In this document: positions 8,343-55,865 of the stretch, one piece after another
How positions within the stretch are numbered: the first letter of the stretch is position 1
How the letters are laid out: each line of letters opens with the position of its first letter
NCBI RefSeq assembly: GCF_006345805.1
Contig: NC_043020.1
Span: 23,932,001-23,996,000, forward strand
Direction: 5' to 3'
DNA: 64,000 nt
From: Octopus sinensis
Taxonomy: Eukaryota
The notes under the pieces: generated by a model
Told to the model about the DNA's origin: nothing
Database searches by the model: none
What the model saw: only the letters and a program-made list of their open reading frames with translations
Program-made: the position numbers and the translations under genes

Positions 8343-8344
<2 letters not shown>

Positions 8345-8857
8345 TTAAACATATCAAAGGGAAATGGAAAATAATTAAAATTTTCCCTTCCAGTGGCCTA
8401 ACGTGTAAAAAGTTAGTCCCAAAAGACTATGAATTAGTCAATATATAGTGTACATTTAAACACATAAGGAATCTGCTCGTGGAATTCAACACGCTAGAAA
8501 GAACAGCTAGGTTCTATAACCACAACAATTAGGGATAAAATTCGACAGGAACGAAATGGAAAATAAAAACATTTTACCATGAATTTTCCTGGACCGGGAG
8601 CCATATAGTTCGATTGCCTCGTTGTTTGTATATTTAACCCAAGGTGTACCTGTTGAGGACGATTTCATCTCGTGAGCAAATATTATTTGCTTGCTAAACT
8701 AAAATCAGAAACCAATTGGTCCAGGAAACTTGATGGTAAGATGTTTCATTCCTGTCGAATTTTATCCCTAATTTTTGTGGTTATAGAAACTAGCTGTTCT
8801 TTCTAGCGTGTTGAATTCCACGAGTGGATTCCTTATGTGTTTAAATGTACACTATAT
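8343..8857. mobile_element. Fold-back PLE-derived insertion in (TA)n
   Basis: Tail 8343-8442; inverted arms 8443-8595 / 8718-8857; HHR-like CCTG-TTGAGGA-CGATTT...AAATCA-GAAA-CCAATTGG-TC-CAGG at 8649-8725. Confidence 0.7.
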
Positions 8858-9465
8858 TAAATATATATATATATATATATAGTACATGTAATACATACAT
8901 AAATCATTTTAAATATAAAATTTGTACAAAAGAAATAACTGACACAAAATATATGATAATATGTAACAAGCTATATAAGGAATAACAATGATATGTAAAA
9001 TATATGTACAATATATGTGTATAATATGCAAAACACGCATATGGTATAACTAAAATATATAAACGCATTATATACGTAGATGTCAAAGGTATATATTTAG
9101 GAAATCTAGCAAATAGAAAATTTATGACAATAAATGAAATACACGAACTCTATTGATTATATGAAATTTACAAATAAACTTATGAAATCTGTAAAATGTA
9201 TGAAATATTTTAAGTACACACAAACATCAAAAGTAAACACACTTTCATGTAAATATGTATGTGTGTGTATATATATATACACACACACATACACTCACTC
9301 ACACACATAAATATATAAAAGATACACACAAAACATTGCTGACATATTTTAAAGGGTGTACTAAAAGGGGTAGGATTGAATAATGAAACAATGAAATATC
9401 TCATGTTCGATATTGCATACGTAAAAACCTCTCAGTGACTGTAAATATATATATATATATGTATG

Positions 9466-9502
<37 letters not shown>

Positions 9503-9552
9503 ATATATCAATCTATACACACACTAACATATATATACAAATGTATACATAA

Positions 9553-9586
<34 letters not shown>

Positions 9587-9913
9587 TCACATACATACAT
9601 ATATATGTGTGTATGTATGTATACACACACACGCACACACATATATTTATATACAGATGTGTACGTATATATATGTGTGTGTATGTTATATATATATGTT
9701 TGTATGCAGGTACATATAACTATATATGCCTATCGATGTATATATATCTCTTTATCTCTATAAATATACCTGTTTGAGTGGGAGGTCGGTTAAGTGGTTG
9801 TTTACTAAATATGAAAACTGTATTAGAAATAACTTATAAAGTACTTTATTATCAATATATACACACACATATATATATGTGTGTGTGTGTATATATAACA
9901 TATATATATATAT

Positions 9914-9949
<36 letters not shown>

Positions 9950-10579
9950 ATATATATAATATATATATATTTAGGTAATGGTAATTTATTGATAGGTAAA
10001 CAGTTCTCCCACACACACATACACACAAACACACATAGACATAATCTTAAATATAGTACCCATCTATAGAAAGGTATGCATAGAAAGGTATATATGTCTA
10101 TATGTTTGTGTTTGCGTGTGAGTGTACGCGCGCGTGTGTGTGTGCTTGTATATATATGTGTGTGTGTGTGTTTGTGTTCGATAAACACATCAAATCGGTG
10201 ATTAAAACTAAATGGTGTAATAAAAATGCTTTATGGGAAAACACACAGTGACGTAGATTGCGCGTAGACGCTCGTGCGCTCATACAGACACTCTCACAAA
10301 CGCGTAAATACAATGAACCATCCCCCCCACACACACACAAGTACACACTTACTTACACACACATGCACACCCCAAACACACGCGCTCACAAAAAATACAA
10401 ATACACACACACACACACACACATATAAACACAAACATGAGCAACACGTCCAGAAGTACACACGCTTACACACTTACGCATACACACACATCGACAGGCG
10501 AAGCTAAGCACTTGCAGAAACGTGCGCAAACATCCACAAAAGCACAGATATAGATTTTCAGGTCGGGTTTTATGAAGAA

Positions 10580-10930
10580 TTTTTTGAAAGAAATCCTTGG
10601 TTTTGCGTATCTAGTGCAGTACTTGGTCTGTTCCATATAGACGCTGCATTCCCATCGATATTACCGGCTGGGTTAGTCCATTGACCAATGTTTGTTAAAG
10701 GCGAAAGACAGTGTTCTCTTGTTAGTGCTTCTGTACCAAAATGTTGCTGCAATTTCATGATGTTTCACATTTCCAGTAAGTTGTTGGAATGCTCCGGTGG
10801 TGAGCCATTCCATGCTGGATAGTGAGCTGCGGTAAAGCATTAATGTAGTGTCGTAGAATTTTCTGTTCTTGTCTGATGATCGTGCTCTGTATGGATTCGA
10901 AGCTGGTGTTTTCTATTCGGTCTGCGAGGA
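10580..10930 (-). pseudogene. Highly decayed LINE 3' fragment (RTE-like?)
   Basis: Non-simple sequence; minus-strand peptides loosely resemble an RTE-type RT C-terminus; weak. Confidence 0.3.
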
Positions 10931-11588
10931 GTAACAATAATTATTATGCTACTAAAGATGATGGTGATAATGATGATGATGATGATGATACGAAAAAAAA
11001 GCAGAAGGAGAAGAGAGAGAAAAGGAAGAAGTGCGATAACATGCATCTTCATTATCATAATCTACATCATTTTACCCCTCCTCCTCATCATCATCATCTT
11101 CATCAATATTATCTTCCTCGTCTTCGTCAACAATATCATCGTTATTACTACTATCATTTATTGGATATAAGGAAATTCATTATTATGAATACACACATAT
11201 ACATATAGATAGATAGATAAACGTATATTCATACATAGATTTACATATACAGATATACCATACATGCATATGTATATATATATATATAAATATATATAAT
11301 TATATATATGTATATATATATGTATGATACATTTATAAAAATATACACAGGCAAGACGTAAATACTCTCACACATATTCTGGCAGATTCACACATACACA
11401 CATGCATAGAAAAATATACACAGATATCCATATAGAATATGGATACACGCATATATGTGTGTGTGTGTATGTGTGTGTGCGTGTCTGTGTGTGTATGGAG
11501 AGAGTGAGATGAAGAGAGAGTCCGTGAAAGACAGACTAAAATAAAGTTTTAACAAAATATAAATAATAATAATTATAATAACAATAAC

Positions 11589-11634
<46 letters not shown>

Positions 11635-11933
11635 TAATAATAATAATAATAATAATATAAAATATTAAAGATAGGAAAGTAGCCTGAATAAAGCAATATA
11701 TAAATAGTTTTTATGTTTAAAAACTGGCGAGGTTGTCTGTTATGGTCAAATGTTTTTGATAAAGTAAATATTCTTTGATGAAATTTATTTTCAAAATGGT
11801 TGCCAATTTACCGTTTTATATCGTTAATAATGTTTAGTGCTGCTGGTGATGTTTCCAGGCTCTGATAGTGCAATATGTCTCTCTCTACCCTCCTCTGTCT
11901 CTCTCTGCAAATGCATACACACACACACACATA

Positions 11934-11966
<33 letters not shown>

Positions 11967-12008
11967 ATAATTATATATACATATATATACATATATATAT
12001 ACATATAT

Positions 12009-12047
<39 letters not shown>

Positions 12048-12083
12048 CTATATATATCTACATATTATATATAATACATATAC

Positions 12084-12134
<51 letters not shown>

Positions 12135-12572
12135 GTATGTATTTGTCTATGTATATGTGCGTGTGTTGTGGGGGGATTAAATATAAACCAAATGAACCGA
12201 GAGTCAATCAAGGTGTTTATATAAAAATAGAACACACATATATATTCACCGAACCCATAATTATGTTTAAAGTTTGCGCGCGCGCACAAACACACGCGGA
12301 TACATAAACACACACATGCAACTGCCTGCTCGTGAATCTCTGGCGCAAGATCGCTAGCTGCGAATTTCTGTGTAGACTCTGGAATTCAACATTCAAAATC
12401 AGAATTAATTAGAGAAAACTGAAGAGGAGAGAACTTCACAGAGGAAAGCAGGACTTTCGCCGATTCTTGAGTCTCTTCTTCTGTGCTCCTACTATGACCA
12501 TGGATTCTATGCCAATGCTGACCCCAAAAGACAACCGAGGACGCACAAGCGACTATATATATATATATATAT

Positions 12573-12800
12573 GTAGTCATATATAAACATAACTTGACTC
12601 TAAAACCACACGAAATATTCTCCTGGTGCTGTATGAATATTAGATGTGGTTTAGAGTCAAGCTATGACTGCTATATCTAGTATGATGGTATCTTTTACAT
12701 ACCCTTAATTATAATTTTAATAACAATTATTACCTATGAGGTTTTTATTCTATGCTAGCAAAATGATATGATCGGTATTTAAGTAACGATCTTATTCTTA
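12573..12800. mobile_element. Small fold-back insertion in (TA)n
   Basis: Arms CATAACTTGACTCTAAAACCACA...ATATTC (12588-12620) / GAATATT...TGTGGTTTAGAGTCAAGCTATG (12635-12666), then ~120-nt tail; (TA)n on both sides. Confidence 0.55.
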
Positions 12801-12884
12801 TATATATATGTTTATAATATTATATATATATATATATATATATTAATATATATAGATTATATATATATATATATATATGTACGA

Positions 12885-13010
12885 CTGGATTTATTCTTTG
12901 TACGCCTGGTACTTATTCTATCGGTCTCGTTTGCCGAACAATCATCTTACGGAATGTAAACACAGCAACATCGGTTGCTAAGTGATGGTAGAGAGACAAA
13001 CACACACAAA
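12885..13010 (-). mobile_element. SINE family A, 3' fragment
   Basis: GTACTTATTCTATCGGTCTC...GCCGAAC is the reverse complement of the family A body. Confidence 0.65.
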
Positions 13011-13029
13011 CAAAAAATCATATACCGAT

Positions 13030-13110
<81 letters not shown>

Positions 13111-13113
<3 letters not shown>

Positions 13114-13525
13114 TAGAAAAAAACCTTTTATCAATTCAAAATTAACAATTAAATTACACCATCTAGAAAATTACATATGATAGAGATATTGAAATTAAAA
13201 TAACAATAATATACCGAAGATTAAGTAAATAGCAAAAAAAATGATAAAAGCGTATATAAATATATACGTTTTTATTATTATTTTTTATTTTTTTGCAATT
13301 TACTTAATCATCGGTATATTATTGTTATTTTAATTTTAATATTTCTATTATATGTAATTTTCTAGATGGTGTAATTTAATTGTTCATTTTGAATTGATAA
13401 AACGTGTGTTTTTTTTTCTAATTCTTATTATATATATTATATTGTGTGAAATTTGATTTAGTATTTCTAATTTGAATTTTTCCCTGTAAGTTAGGACTAA
13501 TATTCCCTCAAATAATAATATTATG
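13111..13525. mobile_element. Fold-back palindrome with tail in (TA)n
   Basis: ~150-bp imperfect arms 13111-13423 centred on CGTATATAAATATATACG; ~100-nt tail; (TA)n flanks. Confidence 0.7.
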
Positions 13526-13616
<91 letters not shown>

Positions 13617-13623
13617 TATATAT

Positions 13624-13965
13624 AGGCGTAGGAGTGGCTGTGTGGTAAGTAGCTTGCTTACAAACCACATGGTTCCGGGTTCAGTCCCACTGCGTGGCAC
13701 CTCGGGCCGACCAAAGACGGAAACTGAAAGAAACCCGTCGTATATATGTATGTGTGTATATGTGATTGTGTGTCTGTGTTTGTCCCCTCAACATTGCTTG
13801 ACAACCGATGCTGGTGTGCTTACGTCCCCGTAACTTAGCGTTCGGCAAAAGAGACCGATAGAATAAGTTCTAGGCTGACAAAGAATTAGTCCTGAGGAAG
13901 ATTTGCTCGACTAAATGCGTTGCGCCATCATGGCCACAGTCAAATGACTGAACCACGTAAAAGAG
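13624..13965 (+). mobile_element. SINE family A (internal deletion)
   Basis: Head GGCGTAGGAGTGGCTGTGTGGTAAG...GGTTCAGTCCC; tail CAAATGACTGAA...AAAAGA. Confidence 0.85.
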
Positions 13966-13966
13966 T

Positions 13967-14000
<34 letters not shown>

Positions 14001-14001
<1 letters not shown>

Positions 14002-14130
14002 GACAGGCTTCTTTCAGTTTCCGTCTCCCAAATCCACTCACAAGGTGCCCTGCGTACCACACAGTGGAATCTAACCCGGATCCATGTTGTTGGGAAGCAA
14101 GCTTCTCACCACACAACCACTCCTGAACCT
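14001..14130 (-). mobile_element. SINE family A, 5' part
   Basis: Reverse complement of the family A head. Confidence 0.7.
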
Positions 14131-14939: not shown

Positions 14940-14970
<31 letters not shown>

Positions 14971-15390: not shown

Positions 15391-15443
<53 letters not shown>

Positions 15444-18485: not shown

Positions 18486-18710
18486 CCTGGAGTAAGCACA
18501 TAAATATGAAACAATGTGGAAAAAATAATACTCAAAAACAAGAGGTAGAGTAATATGCATTATTTAAATGCAACAGAAAATATAACAAAAGCTGTTACTC
18601 AGAGTTTCACGGTCCCGTTCATCGGACACTTTTGTTAAAACTGTCCGAAGAACGGGAACGTGAAACTGAGTAACACCTTTTGTTATATTTTCTGCTGCTT
18701 TTAAATAAAG
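18486..18710. mobile_element. Fold-back insertion with mirrored hammerheads in (TA)n
   Basis: Arms 18560-18628 / 18642-18708; minus TGT-CCGATGA-ACG GGAC CGT-GAAAC TCTGA GTA-ACA; plus TGT-CCGAAGA-ACG GGAA CGT-GAAAC TGA GTA-ACA; ~75-nt tail. Confidence 0.75.
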
Positions 18711-18941
18711 TATATATATATATATGGTTGTATTTCGGAATGGTCATTTTGCCAGTTTAACCAATAAAAACACACACACTATATATTTGGTGTTATTTTG
18801 CTTCAGTGTTATTTATTTATTACATTAATCTTAATCTTGTTTCGACCAGAGTTCTTTCGTCACACTCCTGTGACCGCATCAATTGTCCTTTTTTTCTTCT
18901 TTCTTATTGTTTCAATACCGATTTCACATAAAAAATCTTGC

Positions 18942-19034
<93 letters not shown>

Positions 19035-19105: not shown

Positions 19106-19775
19106 AGGCACAGTTGTGGTGGCGTGATAATAATATTGTTTCTAAATCACATGATTCTGGGTTCAGTCCCACTGCGTGGCACCTTGGGCAAGTGTCTTCT
19201 ACTATAGCTTCGGGCCGACCAAAGCCTTCTGAGAGGATTTGAAAGAAGACCGTCGTATAAATCCACGAGTACAGTTCTATATTTAAGAGATGAGTAGTTA
19301 TGTACATTATTTATATTTAGATTTGATGGATATTTGTCCTCATCTTCTTGTAAACACAGCGTTTCGGCTGATATACCCTCCAGCCTTCATCAGGTGCCTA
19401 AGGGAAATTTGGAACCTGGGTTCTCATTCCCAAGACACCTAATGAAGGCTGGAGGGTTTATCAGCCGAAACGTTAACAACAAACAAGATGAGGATGTAGC
19501 AAATATCTGTCGAATGTAAATAATGTAAATAATGTAAGTCTATGAGTGTTTACTTCGTGTGTGTACCTTTGTGTCTGTGTTTGACCCTCATTATCGCTTG
19601 ACAATCGATGTAGGTGCGTTTGGGTCCCTGTAACTTAGCGGTTCGGCAAAAAATACCGATAGAATAAGTACTAGGCTTACAAAGAATAAGTCCTGGGGTC
19701 GATTTGCTCCACTAAAGGCGGTGCTCCAGCGTGGCCGCAGTCAAATGACTGAAACAAGTAAAAGAATAAAAGAAT
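19106..19775 (+). mobile_element. SINE family A interrupted by a fold-back element
   Basis: Head 19106-19257, body resumes ~19560-19775. Confidence 0.8.
19258..19537. mobile_element. Fold-back insertion with mirrored hammerheads
   Basis: Arms 19303-19405 / 19427-19527; minus TAGGCAC-CTGATGA-A GGCTG...CAGCC-GAAACGCT-GTGTTTA (19351-19400). Confidence 0.75.
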
Positions 19776-19794
19776 ATACATATATATATATATT

Positions 19795-19980
19795 ATTCTC
19801 TCATTTGTTTGTCATTTGACTGCGGTCACGCTGGAGCATCGCCTTTAGTCGAACAAATCAACCCCAGAACTTATTCTTTGTAAGCCTAGTACTTATCCTA
19901 TCGGTCACTTTTGCCGAACCGCTAAGTTACAGGGATGTAAAGACAACATCGGTTGTCAAACGATGGTGGAGGACAAACAC
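19795..19980 (-). mobile_element. SINE family A, 3' half
   Basis: Inverted relative to 19570-19775. Confidence 0.8.
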
Positions 19981-20782
19981 ATATACTTACATACATATAT
20001 ACATAGGTTCACAGATTCGCATTTATGCACTTAGATACGTATACTTATATACACAGGTACATATACATATATATCGCTTCCCTTTGAGCCTTGATATAAT
20101 GATTCATTTCTCATATATTATTTGATATCCAGCTCCCTTTTCTCCTTAATATGTAAACGTGGTATATTTCTATAGCCTCACGTTACTTCTTATTGCTTTG
20201 CAACCCCTAGTGAGATTTTCGGATTGTTTTTTACCTCTTCAAGCCCTTTTCGTAGATGCGGTGTGGGCGAAACTGAAATGATTGAGGAAAACATCTTTCT
20301 CTTTAGTCAGCTCCTCATCGACTTTTGCAGATTCTATTTGGAAATAAAAGTGATTTTCAACAAGGAATTGGACCCTGGTAGTGAATTAGTCAACAGGTGG
20401 GGGTGACGGTAGTAAAACTTAGTTTGGGTGAATAGAACAACTATAAGCTTGTTTGTAGATTGGAGAACAACTGAATAAGGGACCGTGTCCTTGGTAGTCA
20501 GGCTGCTCTTTGGTCTGTGGGGTTCTTTGATTGGCCCTAGTTAGAGGATCTCCTCTGTAAGGAGGACTGCATACACCATGCATTCACATATTTTGAATAT
20601 TAAGTATTCCATCCTCTTTATTTCCATCTGATCTTTTATGAAAACCTCTACACAAATTGCCAACTTGTACTTGTAATGTTATCTCATGGGATGCCCTTGT
20701 GGCAAATATAAGGAATTGCAGTGCATCTTTGTCTTTTACGTGCTGGGTAGAAAATCTTCTTTTTCTCTTTTTTGTTCTGTTT

Positions 20783-22950: not shown

Positions 22951-23081
22951 TACTGTAACCCCATACCATGTCGCGGTTTACTTATCACGGTCCACCTATC
23001 ACGGTTTATTATTAAAGCTTACGTCAATTCCTCCGTGGTGTTGTTTTGCATCTATAATAAAATAGTCGAGGGATTGCTGTA
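22951..23081. mobile_element. Tigger/pogo-like MITE
   Basis: TA-CTGTAACCCCATACCATGTCGCG ... TAGTCGAGGGATTGCTG-TA; right TIR matches 45960-45977. Confidence 0.55.
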
Positions 23082-23275
23082 TATGGTTTTGCGTGCCTTA
23101 CTATAGACCAAGTTATGTTATACTTAATTTTATTTCCCTTCAGTCGCCACAGAAAATTGGCCAAAGATGTTGAATGTCTCTTATTGATTCTCGTGAAGCT
23201 GGCGACAAGGTTGCGATAACAATTCTTAAATGAATCAACCGTTTTCCCAATGTAAGCATATAAAGCTCCCCTTGT
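23082..23275 (-). pseudogene. PLE GIY-YIG endonuclease fragment
   Basis: YIGKTVDSFKNCYRNLVASF...STSLANFLWRLK...YNITWSIVRHAKPY; homologous to the endonuclease of the 46 kb element. Confidence 0.8.
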
Positions 23276-23489
23276 GTGCACAGTACATTTATATATAAGG
23301 TTTGTACTCATACAGAGGTACATCAATGGGCATTTTGATTTTTCTCTGCGTATATGCGCGCGCGCCTGTGATTATGTATGTATGTGGTTGTGTGTGTATG
23401 CGTTTATGTTGCATTTGTTCCCCCAGAACAGACGCTTGGTAAACCGCAACGATTTCCTCAAGCTGCCCGGTTCATAGCGGTTCAATAAA

Positions 23490-26320: not shown

Positions 26321-26578
26321 AATAATATTTATCAGTGACACGGACACGAGGGCAAAGACCGTTCATGAAAAGAGTTATCAAAGATGTGCAGTGTTGTACG
26401 TAGTTCTATAAAAATACACGAACGAGGGGAAAATATATAAAATATAACTGGACGAATTAAAGATGTATAAAATAGATTTACAAATGTTTGCACAGAATAT
26501 TTTTTTAAAAGATAAAGGTTAATAAAACGCAGAACATTTAAAACCGAACATGGTGATGATGATGAATATTTCGCCAAC

Positions 26579-28660
26579 AAATGGCGAAATCTTCATCACA
26601 AGATACCCTCTATTTTTTTTTCTTTTTTGCAAATCGAAACTCCTAAGATTGCGTTCACATGTTTAATTCACTGGCAGCAAGAGATTCTGAGATTTAAGTA
26701 TACTAGTGAAACCCGTATAATGAAAAGATGATTTTCATTTAAATCCGAACATGTGTAACCTCTCCACTTCCTACATTGTTCATTGCCGGAGAGACCAGTA
26801 TATTCAGTGAGAAGATTTGGGGTTACAATGTGGACAAGAAGAGGCCCATATTTCGTGAAGTTGTGGAATATGGTTTGTGCTAATTTTCTGTCCACCTTAT
26901 GCCATTTAAAAATGTGATCCTATTTCCTTCCAGAAGTCATACTTCGTCTGGAAGTTGATGATATGGGAAATATTAGTTTATATCTTCCCCAGTCTTCATT
27001 TAAAGAAAGTACAAATTCCTTCTTAAGGGAGATAGGTTCTCCTCTATAGGAAACGAGTTTCTGCTTGTTCTGGTGGGGCCATACAACCATATTTGTTCGT
27101 GCTGATACTCCCGAGCTATATATGGCCGAATCTTTTCTGCTAATAATGTGCCACAAAAGGATTGGTCGTCGAAACTGATGAATCTTACAGTCACCCTTTA
27201 TCTCTCCGTTTCCTGGAAAATGCAGAACTAGCTAGTGGCTGGTTACGTCACACGAAATTTGTGCTCGCATTTAAGCCTGTTTGAAAGATGATACCTTTAG
27301 TGCCATACATACACCGTTTCTCTCCTATTAAAGGACATTTCACTGAAGATATCTCGCAGAACTGACTCAATCTTTACTTTAGTCGAAAAAGGAAAACCCT
27401 GCTCTCGAAATGGCAAACTGTAGACAACCTTCACCTTTTCACAAGTTTCTGGCGTGAATTATGGTGGACTGGTGTTTGTTATCTTCAAAATGCTTCCAAA
27501 CTTCAGTCATTTTGGTAAAAGCTTCCATTTTGCTTTTTCTTCTTTGGTTCAAAAGAAAGTTTCGCAAAAAATAGCATTTTGTTATTCTTATTTTTTCATG
27601 AAAAATTACGCCTAAGCAAACTGTGTTTAGTGTTGATGTTGTTGATGATGATAATATTGTTTTTGACGTCATTGACCATATTTTGACAAGGGATTTCAAA
27701 GTGAGTGTTAAAACATTACCGTTTTCTTTTGTTTATGATCGATATTAATATTTCGCTATGCAACCAAAATGCCTTATTTTTTATTCGTTTGCTGTGTGTG
27801 AAAGGCACTATTTTCCATTATATCTTTGGCGGGGGCGGATCGTGAAATATTCGTAACCATGCTGGCTTAATTCATGAAGGCGACGTGAAATAAAAAGGTG
27901 GAATAAACACCAGAGATGTCTTTCCCCACACAGGAGCTACAAGAGATATTCAGAATTTTTTCAAGCTTTTCTAAATCCATAGAAATGCTGGAAAACTTTC
28001 CGCATCGTCAGCCGGTATCCTAGAGTCACGAGCGCTTCACCTCTACGTCTCTACGTTTCACTTGAGTGGTGTGGCGAGGACTAAGATAACCTTCCCTAAA
28101 AAAGGTTCCTCTTGTGGCTTCTTATCAACCATAGCCCATGTTGAGCAATTTTCGGCTGCCGTGCCTATTTCTTTGGTAGCTTTCTTTATTCGATTTCTTT
28201 GGTAGCTTTCTTCAGCCGATTTCAAAGGAGAATGAGACCGCACGCCACCCCTTGACATGGGCTTTGTCGACTAAATTCTGATGCCTCGATTTCTTTATGT
28301 AGTGGGAAATATCGAGTCTCTCTTAAAGCACTATGAGTTCAACCGCAATGGTTGTTCTTGCATTCCTGAAGAGCAGGGGCATGTCTGGACGGAATTGATG
28401 TCACCAGTATCTCTTCTAGGAAGACAGTTCAACTTGCATCTACCAAGATAACTGAATAGTCAATGGGGAAGGAAACTCTTCTCTGAAGAGTAGACAAAAA
28501 ATGGCGAAATATTCATCACAAGATACCCTCTATATTTTTTTTATTTTTTTGCAAATCGAAACTCCTAAGATTGCGTTCAATGTTTAATTCACTGGCAGCA
28601 AGAGATTAGAGATTTAAGTATACTAGTGAAACCCGTATAATGAAAAGATGATTTGCATTT
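26579..28660. repeat. ~160-bp direct repeat pair (26579-26740, 28499-28660)
   Basis: ATGGCGAAAT..CATCACAAGATACCCTC...CCCGTATAATGAAAAGATG present twice with few differences. Confidence 0.9.
28005..28460 (-). pseudogene. HERO/R2-type retrotransposon RLE domain and 3' UTR
   Basis: RPDMPLLFRNARTTIAVELIVL*ERLDISHYIKKSRHQNL...GWRAVSFSFEIG...KKATKEIGTAAENCSTW: PD-(D/E)xK restriction-like endonuclease pattern with frameshifts. Confidence 0.75.
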
Positions 28661-32459: not shown

Positions 32460-32518
<59 letters not shown>

Positions 32519-33258
32519 TATATCAAGTATGTATGTATATATATATGTACAGAGAGGGAGAGAGACAGAGAGAGGGTGAGCTGGAAAAGAGAGAGTGGGG
32601 GGCGCTCGTGGTGTCTAGTTATCATAAACGCCAATATCAGTCAACATTTGTATTACTATATTTTACTTCAGAAATAAAAGCAATTATGATGAGACAGGAC
32701 AATTTAATACATCGATATATATTGCAGCTTGTGAGGAGATTGTTATCTTCGTCTTTGTATGCGTAGTGTAGAGTATATATATGTGCACACACACACATAT
32801 ATATGTTAGATACATGCGTACATACATTCACACATATATAAAGAGGTGTATATATGTGTGTGTGTGTATACTCATATATATATATTATATATATATATAT
32901 ATATATAGATATATCAAGTATGTATGTATATATATATGTACAGAGGGGAGAGAGACAGAGAGAGGGTGAGCTGGAAAAGAGAGAGTGGGGGGCGCTCGTG
33001 GTGTCTAGTTATCATAAACGCCAATATCAGTCAACATTTGTATTACTATATTTTACTTCAGAAATAAAAGCAATTATGATGAGACAGGACAATTTAATAC
33101 ATCGATATATATTGCAGCTTGTGAGGAGATTGTTATCTTCGTCTTTGTATGCGTAGTGTAGAGTATATATATGTGCACACACACATATATATGTTAGATA
33201 CATGCGTACATACATTCACACATATATAAAGAGGTGTATATATGTGTGTGTGTGTATA

Positions 33259-33533: not shown

Positions 33534-34830
33534 AAGAAATTAAAGAAGGAAAATGCACACACTCTACATAGTTTTAATACATTTTTAAATATATCTTCTA
33601 TTGTGTTTGTCGACCGGTTTGGCTTTCGCCAATCATGACATTAAAATTATTTTAATTACGTATTTTCTTAAAATATAAGACAGATCTGGAAAAGATACCT
33701 GAATGACGGTTTTATCATTTGGAAGGAGACCATTGATAAACGTTTTGAATTAAAATCAACACTAAATGATATAAACTGTAATATTCAATTCACAATGAAA
33801 TATAAACTAAGAACAGCTCCCATTTTTGGATATCATGATAAAAAAAGTCATCAACCAAATTATAACTGACATCTATCATAAACCAACGGACTCGAAGCAC
33901 TATATCCTTTTTAGCTAATGCTACCCGAAACACATTAACATAAATATCCCCTTTAATTTGGCAAAAAGGATTTTCACAATAGTGACTGATAGAATTACTC
34001 GGGACCTCCGCTTTCAAAACCTCAGAACAACACTAACTAAAAGACAATATCTACCCTCACTTATAGACGATGATATTAAGCGTGCCAAGAGAAGAGACAT
34101 AAAAACACTAAGGACAACAAAATATAACACCACATTTCATCTTGAAACACAACCCTAGAAACAATGAGGCATACAACACTATTGTGCAAAATCTTCCGTT
34201 ACTAACTAGAGACCCCAAAATGAAAACATCTTGAAAACATAAATTTATCAAATGCAAAAAGCAACACAAATCGCTTGAGACTTCTAACAAATGCGAAGCT
34301 TTACACAACAATCAAGAAGCCAACGGTTAAAAATGTGGACGCCTAAACTGTGGAACATGCCCCAACCTACTTGAAGGCTTAGATTTCCTTTTCAAACAAG
34401 GTGAGAGGTTCACAATTAAAACCAGCTTTTCATCGAAAATTATAGAACACGTCTAAATATGCACGCATAACCAACTTTGATCTCTATACGTATTTTAATT
34501 CACGATTACATACCCATCACTGCATATTTCTCCCCACCACCATAGCTTTTGAATTTTTGTGTGTATATATTCCTCCACCACCACCGAAAGATGAACAATT
34601 ATCTCCCCTGTCCACAATATTAACGATCACCCATTATCTCCTCTTGGATTGTTCTACTTGTTGAATCATTCATTCATAAACTCTACACACAACATAGACA
34701 ACAAATGCTTAAGAAAATACATAATTGAAGATTAGCGAAAGCAAAACCGGTCGGCAAATGCAATATAAAATATATTAAGAAAGATATTAAAACTGTGTAA
34801 AGTGTGTGCATTTTCCTTCTTTAATTTCTT
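33534..34830 (+). mobile_element. 5'-truncated PLE (Neptune-like) with inverted pLTRs
   Basis: Inverted arms 33534-~33650 / ~34720-34830; frameshifted RT: WKRYLNDGFIIW, TDIYHKPTDS, IPFNLAKRIFTIV; Cys linker KCGRLNCGTC; decayed HHR TTGAAGA..GC GAAA GC AAAAC CG GTC. Confidence 0.85.
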
Positions 34831-34901
34831 ATATATATATTATGGCTCACCACGTGGGGTAATCGAAATTCCTCCATTTCTATACACACACACACACACA
34901 C

Positions 34902-35002: not shown

Positions 35003-35325
35003 GGCACTGCGTCGATTACGACGATGAATTTTCCAGTTGATTCGGTGAGTGAACAGCCTGCTCGGGAACTTTACAAGTAGCCGAGCACTCCACAGATACG
35101 CATAACCCTTAACGTTGTTCTAAGGGAGATTCAGCGTGACAAAGAATGAGATAAGGTTGGCCCTTTTGAATGACAGATACAACTCATTTTTTGCCCAACT
35201 GAGTGGATTAGAGGAAAGAGAAATAAAATGTCTTGCTCAGGGACACAACACGCCGCCGTCAGCCGAGTATCGAATTCTCGTGGGCCGACAATCCGTAACT
35301 GTTAAGCCACGAACCTTCGGTGCAT
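35003..35325 (-). mobile_element. SINE family B variant
   Basis: Reverse complement of the family B body (GAGCACTCCACAGA, GGGAGATTCAGCGTGAC). Confidence 0.7.
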
Positions 35326-35474
35326 ATACATATATACACAGACAAATACACACGTATTTATCATTCCATATATATATAACTCGGCTGACGGCGGCGTGTT
35401 GTGTCCCCGAGCAAGACATTTTATTTCTCTTTCCTCTAATCCACTCAGTTGGGCAAAAAAATGTGTTGTATCTG

Positions 35475-35523
<49 letters not shown>

Positions 35524-45977: not shown

Positions 45978-46379
45978 TATATATATATATATATATATAT
46001 ATTGGTAAAACGGTAAGATAACAAAAGAAAGAAAGAGACCTCAATATTATGTAAATAGAGGAAATTTATCTATACAATAATATGTTACATTACTCAATAG
46101 TCAAGATAAAACTCTGCGTTTCAGATGCCGAAGTGGGAATCCTCGACATCTCTTCGGTTATCTGGCTATTTGAAAACGCTATGAAAAAATACCGTTATAC
46201 AAAGGGAAATTACTGTGTTATAACTCTGATTGCCTGCGTACTTATACATCGCTCGCATTTTTCGCCATAAAAATTATATAAAAATACATAAAAATACATA
46301 AAAATATATAAAAAATATATAAAAATATATAAAATCTTCTTGGGACATAACATAGAAAGCATGTTCTATCTGTTTTTTT

Positions 46380-47538
46380 TAGGGGACCAAAAACGTAACA
46401 GAAATTTAGTCACATGTGGGCATGATCCGAAAAGTTCTGTCCTTGTGTTTAGACATGTAGTAGGGTCTAAGCTGCTTTTCCAGATAAGCCATCTCTCCAT
46501 GTCGCATAGACCGCACCTTCCGCTGGGTTGGTATAGGGCTTACATCTGGCAAAAATCTTCCAATGTATGTTATAATCGACACCTTCATCTTTTAAAGACA
46601 AAATATGATTAGATAATTGTGTCGCTTTTCTTTTGTTCCAGTGCCTAAAGCTCAGTGTGGTTATTGAACCTGGCCTTGAAGTTACCCTCTGTAAGGCCCA
46701 CGTATCTCTTCGTCGAAACGGTGTCTTTAGTGGTTATAGAGTTTACGGTAGCTTCATATATGATGGTCTTGGACATGCAAGCTCCATTTAGCGGGCACAA
46801 TTCTTTATTCCTGCATGAACAGCTGTTTTCTTGTGTTTTTTGTATGTTATGTTTGATTATGTTTTTAAAATTGGTAGTGGAACTAAAACTAATTTTTAAA
46901 TTGTGTCTATTGAAGAGTTTCCTATAAGTATGGTTAACTGGAAAATGTCCGTCTATCAGTGCCAGGAAATATTTACCTATATTGAAGGCCACCTCGGGTG
47001 AGTAAGGGGGCATAAACCAGATGACCTTCCTATTTCTATTATTCCTTTTCCTTACTGGTGGGCTAGTAATGGGTGTATATTTTATTTTCTCGCTAAAACC
47101 ACTATCTTTTAAAGCCTTATAAACTGGGGCAACGCTATTGAAGATATCTCTATCAGAGGAGAGGCTAGAAATCCTCTTACTAATATTTTTAACTAAATTT
47201 TTGAATACTATAGGGGGATGGCATGAACCTACATTAATATAATTTAGTCTATTATTGGGCTTCCTATAAGACTTATAAATATTCTTATTAAGATCTAAGG
47301 AAACATCTAAGAAATTGACAGCCGTCAGGTTAGTATATATAGTTATACTAAGTCCGAAGTATTTCATTAACTGGATAATATCCTTCCTAAAACGATCTTG
47401 TGCTGGTCCATTTGTATTAGCTGTTAAGGCGAGGGCATCATCTTTGTAGATGGCGAAATGTACGTCAGGGAATGTCTTACCTAAGGTATCTAGGAGAAAA
47501 AGTCCAATTAGATCGCAGATGCCTGCCCCATCAGGCAA
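46380..47538 (-). pseudogene. PLE RT (motif 4 to thumb) + GIY-YIG endonuclease, truncated and frameshifted
   Basis: ORF 46645-47538: DGAGICDLIG, YKDDAL, NFLDV, YRKPN, CSCRNKELCPLNGAC, IIY...YVGLTE..FKARFNNH; continues out of frame IHWKI...KPY, CGLC...LNTRTELFGSCPH. Confidence 0.92.
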
Positions 47539-47604
47539 GCAGAGTTATAACACAGTAATTTCCCTTTGTATAACGGTATTTTTTCATAGCGTTTTGAAAT
47601 AGCC

Positions 47605-47664
47605 AGATAACCGAAGAGATGTCGTGGATTCCCACTTCGGCATCTGAAACGCAGAGTTTTATCT
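47605..47664 (+). ncRNA. Minimal type I hammerhead in pLTR (mirror copy on minus at ~46104-46163)
   Basis: AGATAA-CCGAAGA-GATGTCG...CGGCATC T-GAAAC GCAGA GTT-TTATCT; perfect stem I; CC instead of CU in the core. Confidence 0.65.
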
Positions 47665-47710
47665 TGACTATTGAGTAATGTAACATATTATTGTATATAT
47701 ATATATATAT

Positions 47711-48292
47711 CCTTTTTCCAGTGACGAAAAGTCACTGATCTCGAAAAGGTGTGGCTGATCTCGAAAAAGGCGTGGCTGTGTGGTAAGTAGCTTGCTAACC
47801 AACTACATGGTTCCGGGTTCAGTCCCACTGCGTGGCACCTTGGGCAAGTGTCTTCTGCTATAGCCCCGGGCCGACCAATGCCTTGTGAGTGGATTTAGTA
47901 GACGGAAACTGAAAGAAGCCTGTCGTATATATATATGTATGTGTGTTTGTTTGTGTGTCTGTGTTTGTCCCCCTAGCATTGCTTGACAACCGATGCTGGT
48001 GTGTTTACGTCCCCGTCACTTAGCGGTTCGGCAAAAGAGACCGATAGAATAAGTAGTGGGCTTACAAAGAATAAGTCCCGGGGTCGATTTGCTCGACTAA
48101 AGGCGGTGCTCCAGCATGGCCGCAGTCAAATGACTGAAACAAGCAAAAGAGCAAAAGAGCAAGAGCAAGCAATAATAATTCTCTGAGCGTATGTATGTAT
48201 ATACACACACTTCACGATGTCGTGCAGCTACTGCTTATACCTCGCTCAGAGATTTATTATTGCTTGTTTACACTTTTTCGAGATCAGTGACT
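47711..48292. mobile_element. Fold-back element with a SINE inserted in its left arm
   Basis: AGTCACTGATCTCGAAAAGGTGT (47730) + CAAGCAATAATAATTCTCTGAGCG (~48166) together pair with 48243-48292. Confidence 0.65.
47768..48165 (+). mobile_element. SINE family A, full length
   Basis: Complete head, CORE-like segment, internal (TA/TG)n and tail. Confidence 0.9.
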
Positions 48293-48344
48293 ATATATAT
48301 ATATTTGCATTGAGAACCACTTCCCATCGCAAGCTGGTGGTTGT

Positions 48345-48389
48345 CACACGCTGATGACGGGTCAATATCCAGAAACTCGGGTCCGTGTG
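48345..48389 (+). ncRNA. Minimal type I hammerhead ribozyme motif
   Basis: CACACG-CTGATGA-C GGGT CAAT ATCC A-GAAAC TCGG GTC-CGTGTG; perfect stem I, canonical core, GUC cleavage triplet. Confidence 0.8.
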
Positions 48390-48601
48390 TATCACGTCAA
48401 GCTGGAGAGGGGAACGATGACTTCCCTTTACAAATAATGACAGGGCACAGACAGTGTGTCGATAGCCAGCTGGAGGAGATGTCTTCCGGGAGCTACAAGC
48501 TGCAGTAGAATCAACCTTTAAGGGTTAGTCACATTTAAGTGGCAAATACACTTTAAGATATCGTGCAGCTACTGTTTATACCTCGCTCAGAGATTTACAT
48601 C

Positions 48602-49248: not shown

Positions 49249-49286
<38 letters not shown>

Positions 49287-50148: not shown

Positions 50149-50192
<44 letters not shown>

Positions 50193-50842
50193 GATGTAAA
50201 ACAAAGAACAAATTCTTGCAAAAAAATTATTACGAAATAATTTAGACGAAAGAGAGAGATAAAAAAACCCCTAAAACGGTGCGAAATACGAGATGCGTTA
50301 AAAAAGGATTATATAAAACAAAAGGGTATATAAAACTAAATTCAGAATTTCTTGCCAGTCTTCTGTAAAACTGAAAGTGAAACTAAAAAGAGAATGAAAT
50401 AATTGAAATAAAACGAAAAAAGTCAATGAAGTTTGAAGAAATCACTTAGTTTTATGGAATCCCCGGCGGATCTCTGGATACGCTCGGATTCGGTTGAATG
50501 ATTCAAAGATTTTTAAAGAATATTTACTGCCAGCATACGCCTCTAATTTACATTTAATTTCAGTTTCTGCCAAAATTCCCTGCACTTCCGTCTGAACAGT
50601 AATTTCCTCTCGCTAATCCTCAATGTATTTGACTTTCTGGTCCGTCTCGGCCTTCGTATTCTCGTTCATTATATTTTATTTGTTTTTGATTTACTCGTTC
50701 TAAATCTAAAGATAAAACCATCTCTCTCTCTCTGTGAATGTATGTATGTATGTATGTATGTATGTATGTATGTATATGTCTATGTGAATATACGCATGTG
50801 TGCACACAGAAACATACATTGAATATATAAATGTGAGCACAT

Positions 50843-50882
<40 letters not shown>

Positions 50883-53259
50883 TATATATATATGTATACG
50901 TGTATGTGTGTGGAGAAAGAGAGAGAGAGAGAGTATATCAGTGACTCTATATCTATCCACCTCGCCACCTGCACAATAAGTTTGACATCTTGCATATAAT
51001 TACATCGAATTGATGACCATCTCATTTACCTTCATCTGCACCTTACCTTAATCTCTCACTCCTTTACTCTCTCTCTCTCTCTCTCTCTTATCCTCCCCAT
51101 GTCTTACTTCTGCTTTCGCTAATTCTTATCTCTTGTATTCACACCGTTTCTCTCTCAGTACATCTCCCTTACCGAATACATACAGAAGCTCTTTTTTTTT
51201 ATTTTTTAAAACACTGAAGTGACATTATCTGCCATCTTGCTTTCAATATCTTTTACTGTTAAGAAAAAAGAAAAACGAAAAGAAATGAAAAATAATAACA
51301 AATACCACCACCACTACCGTTTCCACTATCATTGCAAATACTACATGTAGTTTTAGTTGTAGTAGTATAAGGCACAAAGCCTGCAGTTTTAAAAGGAAGA
51401 CCTTTAATCGGTGCCAAAGATCCAGGTACTTGACTAACACTTTGTTTTCTCGGCCTCAAATGAGTGAAAGGCAAAATTGACCTTAATTCAGCGGGATTTG
51501 AACTCACGAAGCAGCAGCAGTAGTTGTAGTAGAAATATTGCCAATACCCTGTAGTCATTCCATTTGCCTACTCCCTATTCTCTCTCCTTTTCTCTCTCTC
51601 TTTTTCTCTCTCCTCCCCTAGTCTCCATTATCTCGCTTGCTCTCCTCTAAAATCAGATACAAATGAGTTCGTGATTTTTAACGTTTCTTCTAATGGCCGC
51701 CATTAACGAAATATGAGGTTTCCCCACCCCTGCCGTTCATTTATTTCTTTTATAACCTATGTCTGATGTTTACGTATTGTAAATTCAAAACAAACAACCA
51801 TATCAGTTACTAAATATTGCTTTCAAATTTTGGAACAAGGCCAGCAATTTCGAGGGAGGGGAGGGGTGTTAAGTCGATTACGTCGACCTCAGCACTCTAT
51901 TGCTATCTATTCTATCGATCATGAAAGGCTGAAGGGAAAAAACGATTGTGGCGGAATTTGAACTCAGGACATATCAGTTACTAAGTATTGAAACTTTCTT
52001 GTGTCTTTCGACCTACTTTATATAAACACGATTCTGATTTCTTTTGGAAATCACAGATTTCAATGCTAAAACTTACCATTGTTTAGCAATTGGAGTCCGA
52101 TGCTGATAGTGATACAACTACTCAGCCACAAAGTTAGGTATCATCATGATAGATTTGCTTAATCCCGAATTATTTTGACTGATAATCCAAGTAGCCAGGT
52201 TTCAACCTCGCAGTGCGAGGAAACTGTTCTGTACGCACTCGTGGAGGATCTCAGCCTTGCCCTCTTGCGGATTTATTTTGAACAGCTGTTGTTATGTGTA
52301 AGACGAATTCAGCAATCGGCTGAGTCCGCATTTAAGATGAATCCCGCTCTGCCATTCTTCGACAAGGCAAAACAGGCAGTGTTCTTCTGTCTTGTAGGCC
52401 TAGCGAAAGGGGTTGTGTGGTGGACGAGGCGGAAAGCATTGAGTACAGATACCTTCCTCTTTTGGAGGGGTCTCATCGAAACGAAAGTGAGAGTAGAGAC
52501 AAAAATGCTCTCCCGCGGTGAATTTATCAAAAAGTGGATATTACTGGGCAAAAATAAAGCGAATGGAACTCCTCCAATGCACATAGGACGCCTGCTTTAT
52601 TGGAGAACAACAACAGGAAAAAGGCTCAATATATTCATTACGTGTTTTCATATCAGGTGATAGTCCTTTTCTTGTGTTCTTGTCCTGTTGAAAGTTCTGT
52701 ATTTTTTCAGTTTCTGTTGTTGGGTTTTAGATGGTCTTCAAAGTTTTAAAGACAAAATGGACCTCTTTTATTTTTTTGTATCCACCTAAATATTTACCAT
52801 TCTCCAAATAATGATCGAGTTGACTCAAAACATAACCACATTCTTCCTTTCGTTAAAATGCTTTGGTATCTTGATATCTGGGATCCTTTCAGACAAGACC
52901 TTCATAAGACGTCATCGTTTCTGAAATGATTATGTTCCAAATTTTATTAAATTTGTGGTCAAACAGTCCGAAAAATTATAAACTTATCCACAGCATATTA
53001 TCTCAGATATTTTGTCAGGAAGAAGACACCTTATGACCTTTGACGATTAAACTGATCGAATCATAATGTTGTTAAATACAGAAAAATATTTTCCCCGAAA
53101 GAAATAATTTAATTGTCCAAAATCTTATCTTCTTAGCAGCAAATCCGATGTATTTAGATAACCAATAATTTCTTCGAAATAAATTATGTACCAGGGTTAA
53201 AGAGAGTGACAGAGGAAAAGAAGAAAAAGGTATAGGTAGTTGGTGCTGAAGAAATAAAT

Positions 53260-53640
53260 ATCTTTTGCGTGTTTTAGTCATTCGACTGCGGTCATGCTGG
53301 AACCTTGAAGAATTTTCAGTCGAATAAATCGATCGCAATTCTTTTTCTTTTTTAAAACCTGGTACTTAATCTAGTCGTCCCTTTTGCAAAAGCGCTAGCT
53401 TACAGAGACGGACATAAACACACCAACACTGGTATGTATGTGTGTATGATTGTATGTATCTATTTATCTATAAACAAATACGACGGGATTCTTTCAGTTT
53501 CCATTTATCAAATCCACTTTTTGATCCTACCAGATGTTATAGTAGAAGACACTTGCCCTTGGTACCAAGCTGTGGGACTGAACCCGGAACTATGTGGTTG
53601 GGAAGCAAGCTGTTGACCACACACCCACGCCTGCGCCTAA
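53260..53640 (-). mobile_element. SINE family A, diverged
   Basis: Reverse complement head at 53560-53640, tail at 53270. Confidence 0.75.
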
Positions 53641-54429
53641 ATATGGTTTGATTAGGTTAAGTGGCAGAAATATATTTGCAATTGCCAGTGTTGGTCTGCA
53701 TGAACTAACTTCGAAGCGTTTCCAGTTTATCAGAACCCATATTCCATCGAAGAGGGAATCGAATTGAGCTGAAACAGACATCTACAGCCATACAAGCAAG
53801 CAACTAATATCTGGTTTACAAAGATCCGTAATCACACAACTAATTCTGGCATTCTGTCAACGGAATTTCGCGTATGATTGATTAACTTGCAACATTGCAA
53901 ATTTCAAATGTTCGTTAAACAGACGAGAATGCTAAGAAAATTCCCTCGAAAAATCTTAAGGAATCTTTGAAATAAAGGTTTTACGCTTGGTAGAGAGACT
54001 TGGCTTTTGTGAAAGACCGAGGGAGTTCTCTACTCTGGCACTCAACTTGTGTGATATGGGGGTCTTTAATAAAATTCTGTCATTTAAATAAAATCGGGAA
54101 GATACATTGCAAAATGTTGAAGACCAACGTATACGAAAAGATGTGTTGTTCTTCACAAGCAAACCACGATGCCGTTACAAGGTTGTCAATTTGCAAAAAG
54201 GTAACTGAAAAAACTGACCTCAAATCACTCTTTGTTGTGAAGGTGGGAAGGTTTCTTTATGTCTGTCTAACCACACACAACCTGCAGTTAAAGAACAGCA
54301 ATACAACAACAACAATAAAAACTTTAAAGCCATCAGCGTAGAACAAAAATACAGATAGATGAAAATCACATCTCTAATTGTTGAATTCACCATAGAAAGC
54401 CTGGATTGGTTGCTGTTTCTATAAGATGA

Positions 54430-54508
<79 letters not shown>

Positions 54509-54680
54509 TGTATAGAGGGCATTATTACACATAAATGCCTCACACTAAGAGGGACAAACTCATTACTACCAAAATTACACTAATCATACCCAAATGCAGT
54601 TCTTCAAAGCAAGACATTTAAAAAATGAATTTAGTTCTGTATCACCGTGATTTCACATTTAACTTAATGTATATATATAC

Positions 54681-54778
<98 letters not shown>

Positions 54779-55189
54779 AATATATAATTAATATATGTAA
54801 ACAAACTTTGTTTTTAAAAGCGTCATATGTGCATCATATTGAACAGGCAGCAAGGTAATATGTCGAACGCAGTACAACCGTGAAAAGAGCAGAAAGATTG
54901 GGTTTTATTATCCTTATATGATCGAAAAACGTTGTCGACACACGGACCCCAAACTAAGTCAAACTATACACTGACAACGATTGACATCAAATTTAAACGC
55001 GAAATATATAGGTTATTCGAATTTAATGCTGTTGTTGCATTCCCAAAATCTGTATTTAGTGCTTAAATATGACGGCGATTGTGGACAGTTTCGCCTGATG
55101 GTAGAATATTCAGCCGGTATACGAGGGGTACGGGTTCGAGTTCCGTGGCTCTTCGTTGACAATTAAGATATATATATATATATATATAT

Positions 55190-55592
55190 GCAGCAGTGGC
55201 TGTGTGGTAAGAAGCTTGCTTACTAACCAAATCCGAGTTCAGTCCCACTGTGTGACACCTTGGGCAAGTGTATATAGCCTCGGGCCAACCAAAGCCTTGA
55301 GAGTGAATTTGGTAGACGGAAACTAAAAGAAGCCCGTCGCATATATATATGTGTGTGTGTGTGTATGTTTAGGTATGTATTTGGGTGTCTGTGTTTGTCC
55401 CTCCACCATCACTTGACAACCGATGTTGGTGTGTTTACGTCTCCGTAACTTAGCGGTTCGGCAAAACAGACCTATAGAATAAGTACTAGGCTTGCAACCA
55501 ATAAGTCTTGTGGTCGATATGTTCGACTAAAGGTGGTGCTCCAGCATAGCCGCAGTCAAATGATTGAAACAAGTAAAAGAAAAAAGAATAAG
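55190..55592 (+). mobile_element. SINE family A, full length
   Basis: Matches the 47768 copy. Confidence 0.85.
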
Positions 55593-55609
55593 AGTATATA
55601 TATATATAT

Positions 55610-55858
55610 ATACAAAACAATAAGAGAGGATCCACTATATGGACGCTCTAACGCTAGATATAGATCCGCAAAGGGAAACCACCACCAAGAAAATGTTTGC
55701 GGATCTATATCTAGCGTTAGAGCGTCCACATAGTGGATCCTCTCTTATTGTTTTGTATTAATAATATTTACTGAGTCCCTGTACATTATACGCTAGGCCA
55801 CTTGGTGTTTAAATTGATGTTATTAATCAATATTCAATTTTTTCACCCTTATTTTGAC

Positions 55859-55865
<7 letters not shown>
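55610..55865. mobile_element. Near-perfect fold-back with tail in (TA)n
   Basis: 63-bp arms 55610-55672 / 55696-55758 with one mismatch; ~105-nt tail; (TA)n flanks. Confidence 0.8.

Follow-up and report, generated by a model that had tools for sequence, protein, structure and literature searches.

Can a short, MITE-like hairpin (MITE, miniature inverted-repeat transposable element) be the product of reverse transcription? The question is raised by a 64-kb stretch of the Octopus sinensis genome (contig NC_043020.1, positions 23,932,001 to 23,996,000; hereafter the window), which has 36% GC, is dense in microsatellites and short interspersed repeats and belongs to a genome of 2.72 Gb. An earlier note on this DNA had described insertions with inverted arms, a one-sided tail, (TA)n flanks and hammerhead ribozyme folds, and had attributed them to Penelope-like elements (PLEs). 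An inverted arm formed by the pseudo-long terminal repeat (pLTR), a tail, a (TA)n target and a hammerhead are published PLE features (passages of PMC8557442, PMC3846280 and PMC4209133), and the origin of the inverted repeats and of the one-sided tail, as well as the role of the hammerhead, are named as open questions in passages of PMC8557442, PMC4209133 and PMC11167929. The anatomy described here belongs to known PLE biology, to which the families add new members. New are copy-level rules, which join an in vitro result of 2024 with the inverted-arm geometry, and an effect of the hammerhead that is visible in one family.

Nine families with two fixed 3' ends

Inverted arms were detected by self-BLAST after masking of simple repeats and were present at all nine window loci, so the plan described in the earlier note is real. 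Searches of the octopus genome gave 759-3843 first-look candidates per family, and the best 40 were scored in each search. Apart from the whole-hairpin queries considered below, queries consisted of the tail plus one arm, and one further query (family 46003) of the arm only. Duplicate loci, such as L404 (identical to L139) and L265/L266 (L093/L094), were dropped prior to counting. Families are referred to by window positions and genomic loci by L numbers.

Two fixed 3' ends were found in all nine families: site A, the end of the tail, and site B, its start. The distance from B to A is fixed per family (8343, about 99-104 nt; 55613, 99; 13111, 84-95; 12573, 82-86; 18486, 68; 46003, 61-66; 48300, 40-49; 33534, 39-57; 19258, 25-47). 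The one-sided tail was thus reproducible across copies, and the question of tail length against truncation is answered: the tail is fixed, while the fold point varies. The nine loci represent separate high-copy families, and the MITE class is excluded. Symmetric terminal inverted repeats with a fixed interior were not what we found; the copies have a tail on one side, junctions (fold points) that are specific to the copy, and many solo arms. An origin as MITEs from a DNA transposon that targets TA, or by clonal copying of a single master hairpin, would account for the inverted ends, the TA flanks and the length of about 230 nt common to many 18486 copies. Against this background of variable junctions, and with four families continuous with reverse transcriptase (RT) or GIY-YIG coding sequence and 8-13-bp duplications in family 19258, the chance of such an origin is practically nil. 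The small hairpins are insertions of the PLE route, as previously proposed.

The loci had also been called mutually unrelated in sequence. They do form separate families, but the tails of 8343 and 55613 align better than 500 shuffles, and a similar motif occurs in 12573. The motif common to these three tails is about 15 nt long, lies some 60-76 nt from site A and is a candidate protein-binding signal. A further related unit is present upstream in L217.

The pairing of ends was counted in eight families at 248 unique tailed loci, with an inverted partner sought within 1.7 kb; the count excludes nine loci with a main arm that does not end at A, as well as the 30 loci of 18486 from the hairpin-biased sample. 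The partner ended at B in 109 loci and at A in 11, it could be assigned to neither in 15, and 113 loci had no inverted partner. Inverted geometry had been said to predominate; about half of the copies are in fact unpaired. A hand count in family 46003 gave 30 A-B pairs and one A-A pair. Overall, A-B pairs were found at 139 loci and A-A pairs at 12, with no B-B pair among 13 tested. Because tailed queries are blind to B-B pairs, the latter were sought with the arm-only query of family 46003. Its best 40 matches comprised 23 B-ended and 17 A-ended arms, and wherever the inverted partner of a B arm could be resolved (13 arms) it ended at A, a result with a probability of 1.5e-5 if the ends were independent (one family tested).

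Probable priming from both ends of the cut DNA

According to passages of PMC11167929, Poseidon, a PLE of the anole Anolis, encodes a predicted dimeric protein that in vitro cleaves an AT-rich target on both strands and extends each of them; RT begins at two positions, one on either side of the tail. The octopus copies resemble this system in their two tail-bounding ends and AT-rich target; in the passages of PMC11167929, the pair of start sites is connected neither with opposite ends of a single insertion nor with inverted arms. We consider it probable that the octopus copies arose by priming from both DNA ends, on one RNA or on two. That both cut ends prime RT on one RNA, at A and B (fixed-site twin priming), is the reading suggested by the copies that we favour with moderate confidence. 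In LINE-1 twin priming, the second end of the cut DNA primes at an internal site of the RNA already in use, and the inversion is joined by microhomology. The internal site of LINE-1 is variable and the two pieces are mostly without overlap, whereas here it lies at a fixed 40-105 nt from the first and the pieces overlap, which is why inverted repeats arise.

In the proposed course of events, the PLE protein would cleave an AT-rich target, often (TA)n, on both strands, as the target duplications indicate. Complementary DNA (cDNA) synthesis would begin at A from one DNA end and at B from the other; both fixed ends and their pairing are seen in copies, and a role of both sites as RT starts would follow the in vitro data (PMC11167929, as far as its passages go). 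The cDNAs would run for variable distances, the trailing RT presumably displacing the leading cDNA. Strand displacement is a known activity of reverse transcriptases. The cDNA 3' ends would anneal via 2-4 nt, a microhomology found in the copies, and a putative fill-in would give head-to-head arms with a loop derived from the longer arm. Should one side fail, a solo copy ending at A or B would result, and both kinds are seen.

The route suggested in the earlier note was different: a single cDNA, begun at the tail, folds back on itself (snap-back) and is extended along its own sequence as far as B, so that the tail is omitted. A haplotype common to both arms and microhomology at the junction (see below) would follow from such a route, and so would the 13 of 30 pairs of family 46003 in which the A arm is the longer one (lengths measured along the natural copy L182). 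In 10 of the 30 pairs, however, the tail-less B arm exceeds the tailed one by more than 25 nt, as in L183 (1634 versus 493 nt) and L288 (666 versus 39 nt), and the window copy of 8343 is itself B-longer. The tailed pieces of L288, L011 and L022 (39-47 nt) are even shorter than the tail. Since a tailed cDNA cannot template sequence that is missing from it, both arms were copied from RNA or from a longer intermediate. Snap-back is refuted as the general route and very improbable as the explanation of these families, although a minority of copies may have arisen by it. Arms within 25 nt of each other made up the remaining seven pairs, against 1.9 expected (p=0.002).

The two arms of a locus also resemble each other in sequence. 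In 29 pairs of family 46003, same-locus arms differ at 114 of 5797 sites (2.0%) versus 3.5% in permuted pairs, and none of 2000 permutations gave a difference as low. Single-nucleotide polymorphisms (SNPs) and 35-nt indels form haplotypes that same-locus arms have in common; the family comprises at least four subfamilies, and the haplotypes of the arms agree in nearly all pairs. The same direction was seen in all seven other families tested (P 0 to 0.067, P<=0.03 in six). Priming by both DNA ends on two RNAs, with a dimer holding both RNAs and imposing the A/B asymmetry, would need no strand displacement, and sibling RNAs of one active locus would have a common haplotype. What look like two different PLE-type ends arranged head to head (window 2679-3223), and a foreign PLE piece inverted beside a 55613 tandem (L361), speak for it. 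Given the excess of near-equal arm lengths and the agreement of haplotypes in spite of the subfamilies, we grant priming on two RNAs a slim chance.

Junctions were analyzed in family 46003. An overlap of at least 2 nt was found at 16 of 34 inverted junctions, compared with 18% expected (p=0.0003 with gaps counted as zero). Twenty junctions were gap-free, 18 of them overlapping, and the mean overlap was 2.45 nt versus 0.73 nt by chance. Extra internal pieces were present in L093, L277, L359 and L118, as template jumps would yield.

The target site is best seen in family 19258, where 11 of 16 inverted loci lie, arms and all, within a duplication of at least 8 bp; among mismatched flanks the rate is 5%. 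Because a single duplication encloses the structure, the whole hairpin entered at one staggered cut. The duplications measure 8-13 bp; in the other families they are invisible inside (TA)n. By eye, both outer ends often have 1-4 nt in common with the duplication, as expected of ends that primed. The (TA)n flanks that had been ascribed to all loci are indeed common, with two exceptions: the 19258 insertion, which lies inside a short interspersed element (SINE) with an 11-bp duplication and whose family has TA at the A end in only 5 of 40 copies, and the 33534 remnant, which is flanked by (CA)n.

A full hairpin could also be formed first, by self-priming and perhaps on an antisense template, with the endonuclease (EN) then trimming the tail off one arm. 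Self-priming on antisense RNA has been proposed in PMC3846280, and a tail derived from EN-mediated resolution in PMC8557442 (both in passages). Identical arms, microhomology, near-equal lengths, a longer arm of either kind and the lack of B-B pairs would all be accounted for. Trimming of a hairpin does not predict that solo B-ended copies without a hairpin are common, some of them near full length (L355/L423, L274, L280), that the tail boundaries coincide with RT start sites in vitro (passages of PMC11167929), or that outer ends overlap the target duplication. We judge this course unlikely, though with a real residual chance.

Several points weigh against fixed-site twin priming. The 12 A-A pairs depart from the pairing rule, and 14 of 34 junctions have a gap or insert of 1-36 nt, some of which stem from SNPs relative to the reference. 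The likeness of arms fits one RNA, two RNAs from one locus, or gene conversion. In vitro, start-site use did not differ between strands and cleavage was dispensable (passages of PMC11167929). All copy counts are small top-match samples of fixed genomic copies, and the whole-hairpin queries used for 8343, 55613 and, at first, 18486 biased their samples toward the hairpin.

Compared with EN-bearing PLEs as described in passages of PMC8557442 and PMC3846280, the octopus copies are alike in the 5'-truncated inverted copy at the 5' side, the tail at one end, the hammerhead near the 3' end, the (TA)n bias and the target duplication of 8-13 bp where visible. They differ in tails of up to 60-105 nt versus 30-40 nt there. 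The A-B pairing rule, the longer arm of either kind, the same-source arms and the hairpins of less than 250 nt counted here were not found stated in those passages. A literature search by title, abstract start and passages returned no application of twin priming to PLEs and no link between the hammerhead cut and the ends of copies; part of this may be contained in subscription papers on the structure of Penelope. In Schistosoma, opposite-strand pairs of minimal hammerheads 100-700 bp apart, for which the passages of PMC4209133 give no anatomy or mechanism, are probably the same kind of short inverted PLE remnant. The copies yield countable predictions (A-B pairing, arms from the same template, a stop at the hammerhead cut) that can be tested in the existing in vitro system.

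Hammerheads and the ends of copies

A type I hammerhead or a variant of it is located on the sense strand, at a fixed place near the 3' end, in all nine families. Eight were found with a descriptor of our own; the ninth family, 33534, has a conserved A3-U8 variant. A strict scan gave 9 matches at 8 cores versus 0-3 (mean under 1) in 10 shuffles. The five hammerhead loci counted in the earlier note were recovered (8343 with a variant core, 18486, 19258, 46003 and 48345), and a decayed A3-U8 variant was seen at 33534. By folding energy, none of the five window folds separates from shuffles (z 0.7 to -1.8), and no hammerhead family was among the 150 matches listed of 401 in an Rfam scan of the window, those matches being microsatellite-driven. 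The hammerhead-like motif of family 33534 lies about 140 nt from the A end. It has the A3-U8 core pair, a variable position 7, a 2-bp stem II and a palindromic stem III, and is kept across most of 30 loci.

The hammerhead of family 13111 has a canonical core, a stem II of 10-12 bp, a palindromic stem III and a GUC site; it is distinct from the CCGATGA that occurs in the arms of this family. Twenty-nine of 39 tailed arms of this family end 0-34 nt 3' of the predicted GUC cut, one ends at +12 and nine extend more than 60 nt past it; to be found by the query, a tailed arm had to extend to about 22 nt from the cut, with no limit set beyond. Inverted 13111 arms nearing the cut never pass it (0 of 12), whereas in family 46003, which has C at core position 4, 28 of 30 B arms pass; the Fisher value for this comparison is overstated, the arms of one pair not being independent. 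By eye, four 13111 arms (L128, L129, L132, L148) start at the cut. The pile-up is likely a trace of hammerhead cleavage in vivo, and the ribozyme cut likely sets the stop point of some copies. On a cleaved RNA both cDNAs would stop at the cut, giving a loop-less hairpin. Unlike the 13111 copies, which stop near the cut, Poseidon gave no reads at the hammerhead cut in the passages of PMC11167929.

This interpretation is weakened by the presence of a sharp boundary in one family only. The boundary is absent in 46003, 18486, 8343 and 12573 (in the last, no step at the cut was read by eye); 55613 and 19258 (3 of 14 inverted arms) give a hint of one. The 13111 boundary could instead result from stalling of the RT or from the start of transcription, and solo junctions may be drawn to TA-like microhomology that lies 8-18 nt inside the cut. 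Arms of both kinds in family 18486 tend to end where stem I has its outer limit, 33-47 nt 5' of the cut predicted for this family.

More generally, we propose tentatively, and with somewhat more doubt than belief, that in PLEs of at least three clades and in the hammerhead repeats that ride on them one dimer sets both cut ends on fixed positions of one RNA, and that hammerhead cleavage in vivo shortens the templates, producing tiny hairpins. If this is true, thousands of MITE-looking repeats are a readable record of PLE reverse transcription and ribozyme activity. Such repeats are liable to be filed as MITEs or overlooked by tandem-based retrozyme searches.

Coding relatives, non-coding units and other window features

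Judged by their sequence, four families are assigned to the 3' ends of coding PLEs: two of Hydra type, one of Neptune type and one putatively of Penelope/Poseidon type. Use of the route by several lineages, as claimed earlier, holds. Family 46003 has a 634-codon open frame in L182 with YKDD and a GIY-YIG-like core, to which L353 and L355 supply the N-terminus. In these three loci the Hydra-clade motifs RWK, DKT, a CxCx5C linker, and CxxC and CxH around E and N were recognized by eye; the lack of CCHH, a length under 3 kb and the (TA)n target also fit the description of the clade in passages of PMC8557442. The clade call was made by motif because the Pfam match was weak and the names of homologues were uninformative (none of 847 homologues of the protein was informatively named). 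For family 18486, a broken Hydra-type RT-EN frame leads into the 18486 end in L373 and L422, with a tail-less inverted arm upstream, and six further loci of the 30 of this Hydra-type open reading frame (ORF) family have an 18486 arm nearby; of the Hydra motifs, the C-terminal ones only were seen. Fragments of a Neptune-type thumb, linker and EN occur with family 33534 in L364, L365, L366 and L368, the copies being old and broken. In family 19258, which may belong to the Penelope/Poseidon clade, marked by a C-terminal EN that has CCHH but lacks a linker finger, one EN remnant precedes the end in L154 (by eye), and an RT piece is adjacent in L366.

Four further families (8343, 55613, 12573 and 48300) appear from their sequence as retrozyme-like, non-coding tandem hammerhead units of 355-523 nt, in agreement with the earlier view that some copies are non-autonomous. 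Their tandem periods are 478-489, 523-525, 482 and 341-361 nt, respectively, with a GC content of 0.30-0.44 and a longest ATG frame of 22-47 amino acids; the 8343 core is non-canonical within this set. In passages of PMC7229834 and bioRxiv 10.64898/2026.07.22.740005, metazoan non-LTR retrozymes are likewise non-coding low-GC tandem units with a type I hammerhead, and their mobilization by PLEs is proposed. Most copies here differ from retrozymes in being sub-monomer, tail-bearing and often inverted, and are known from genomic copies alone; three units (482-523 nt) exceed the 150-450 nt range given in passages of PMC7229834. The units bear the same A/B signal and would be copied in trans, their anatomy being observed and the mobilizer presumed. 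They provide structural evidence for retrozyme-like units using PLE machinery.

Two further results weigh against the favoured reading. The 46003 frame gave a weak GIY-YIG match (E 0.058) and no RT match in Pfam, and a coding parent was not found for 8343, 55613, 12573 and 13111. The expected mapping to PLE 3' ends succeeded for four families and failed for 8343, 55613, 12573, 48300 and 13111, whose ends were not linked to an ORF. Upstream of 13111, 1.1 kb of AT-rich sequence is present in two loci, without a match to Hydra-type queries (no Neptune-type query was run).

A single chimera, L362:529-1558, in which a partial 48300 tandem and a Hydra-type RT fragment from family 18486 are fused in the same orientation, hints at which RT copies the 48300 unit. 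The unit was considered as the pLTR of the adjoining Hydra ORF and rejected, as none of the 29 other loci of the ORF family has it 3'; this ORF family carries 18486-type ends. A Hydra-like PLE in which a Ser/Asn-rich stretch precedes the endonuclease forms a near-perfect 1.7-kb inverted pair (98.6%) in L352:1197-4606, and the identity extends beyond an internal (TA)n into flanking repeats. An 18486 hairpin in L084 lies about 40 nt beyond the stop of a long C2H2 zinc-finger open frame.

Features of the nine loci and their coordinates are compiled in Table 1. At 47711 the inverted arm that had been described is present, but the element is split by a SINE and extends farther. Family 48300 has a third end site about 52-60 nt beyond A, used by the inverted arm in the window and by L343. 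The window copy of 12573 is truncated before the family hammerhead; the unit measures about 482 nt and is non-coding.

Table 1. Coordinates of insertions and their parts within the window
Feature	Position	Strand	Remarks
Inverted arms by self-BLAST	8443-8595/8718-8857; 12588-12666; 13111-13423; 18560-18708; 19303-19536; 33534-33634/34730-34830; 46075-46236/47532-47693; 48166-48266; 55613-55755		98% for 46075-46236/47532-47693
8343 tail	8343..8442	-	Site A at 8343, site B near 8442
8343 tailed arm	8443..8595	-	
8343 tail-less copy	8596..8857	+	5' end about 125 nt longer than in tailed copy
8343 hammerhead-like motif, U3 core	near 8650-8725		Inside tail-less copy; part of non-coding tandem unit of about 488 nt
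12573 element	12588..12798	+	Short decayed inverted arm (12588-12620), then tailed sense copy
13111 tail-less arm	13111..13268	-	Ends 14 nt 3' of predicted hammerhead cut
13111 tailed arm	13282..13525	+	Tail about 13424-13525; ends near same point as tail-less arm
18486 tail and arm	18486..18632	-	Hammerhead motif, C4 variant; Hydra-type coding PLE 3' end
18486 tail-less arm	18637..18710	+	
19258, putative Penelope/Poseidon-type 3' end	19260..19547	-	Tailed arm 19270-19434, tail-less arm 19429-19536
19258 decayed 11-bp duplication	19260-19270 / 19537-19547		Whole insertion inside SINE
33534, Neptune-type PLE remnant	33534..34882	+	Tail-less inverted arm 33534-33665; tailed arm 34730-34882; (CA)n flanks
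33534 broken RT thumb and linker	about 33680-34450		
46003, Hydra-type PLE	46003..47532	-	61-nt tail; 5'-truncated RT and GIY-YIG ORF
46003 hammerhead in arm	46104-46163		
46003 tail-less inverted arm	47531..47704	+	2-nt microhomology join; hammerhead 47605-47664
48300 element	47711..48601 (end approximate)	+	Short inverted arm split by SINE (about 47770-48165), then partial tandem
48300 canonical type I hammerhead	48345-48389		In partial tandem of non-coding unit of about 355 nt
55613, non-coding hammerhead unit of about 523 nt	55613..55865	+	Tail-less arm about 55605-55697; tailed arm about 55696-55865

Additional repeats of this kind were noted in the window. A further dispersed repeat lies between (TA)n runs at 18726-18948 and has inverted pairs in L278 and L033; because it had been missed, the density is higher than the 1 per 7 kb or so estimated in the earlier note. 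At 2679-2872 (-) and 2883-3223 (+), two different hammerhead-bearing PLE-type ends stand head to head between (TA)n runs and are joined without a TA tract, each having its own inverted pairs elsewhere (L113, L349, L385, L136); they may be a product of two RNAs or two insertions. A Hydra-type GIY-YIG remnant is located at 22983-23371 (-), with a related short end at 3281-3360. Two other inverted pairs were without the tail plan and were rejected: 19576-19981, which consists of two SINEs, and 35172-35476, a common dispersed repeat.

Pfam left the window ORFs unnamed. The open frame at 58548-58964 (-), without Pfam support, resembles the C-terminal part of a non-LTR retrotransposon protein. Direct duplications were found as well, one of 338 bp (96% identity, spacing 391 bp) at 32517-33242 and a pair of 166-bp repeats (94% identity) 1.9 kb apart at 26575-26740 and 28495-28660.

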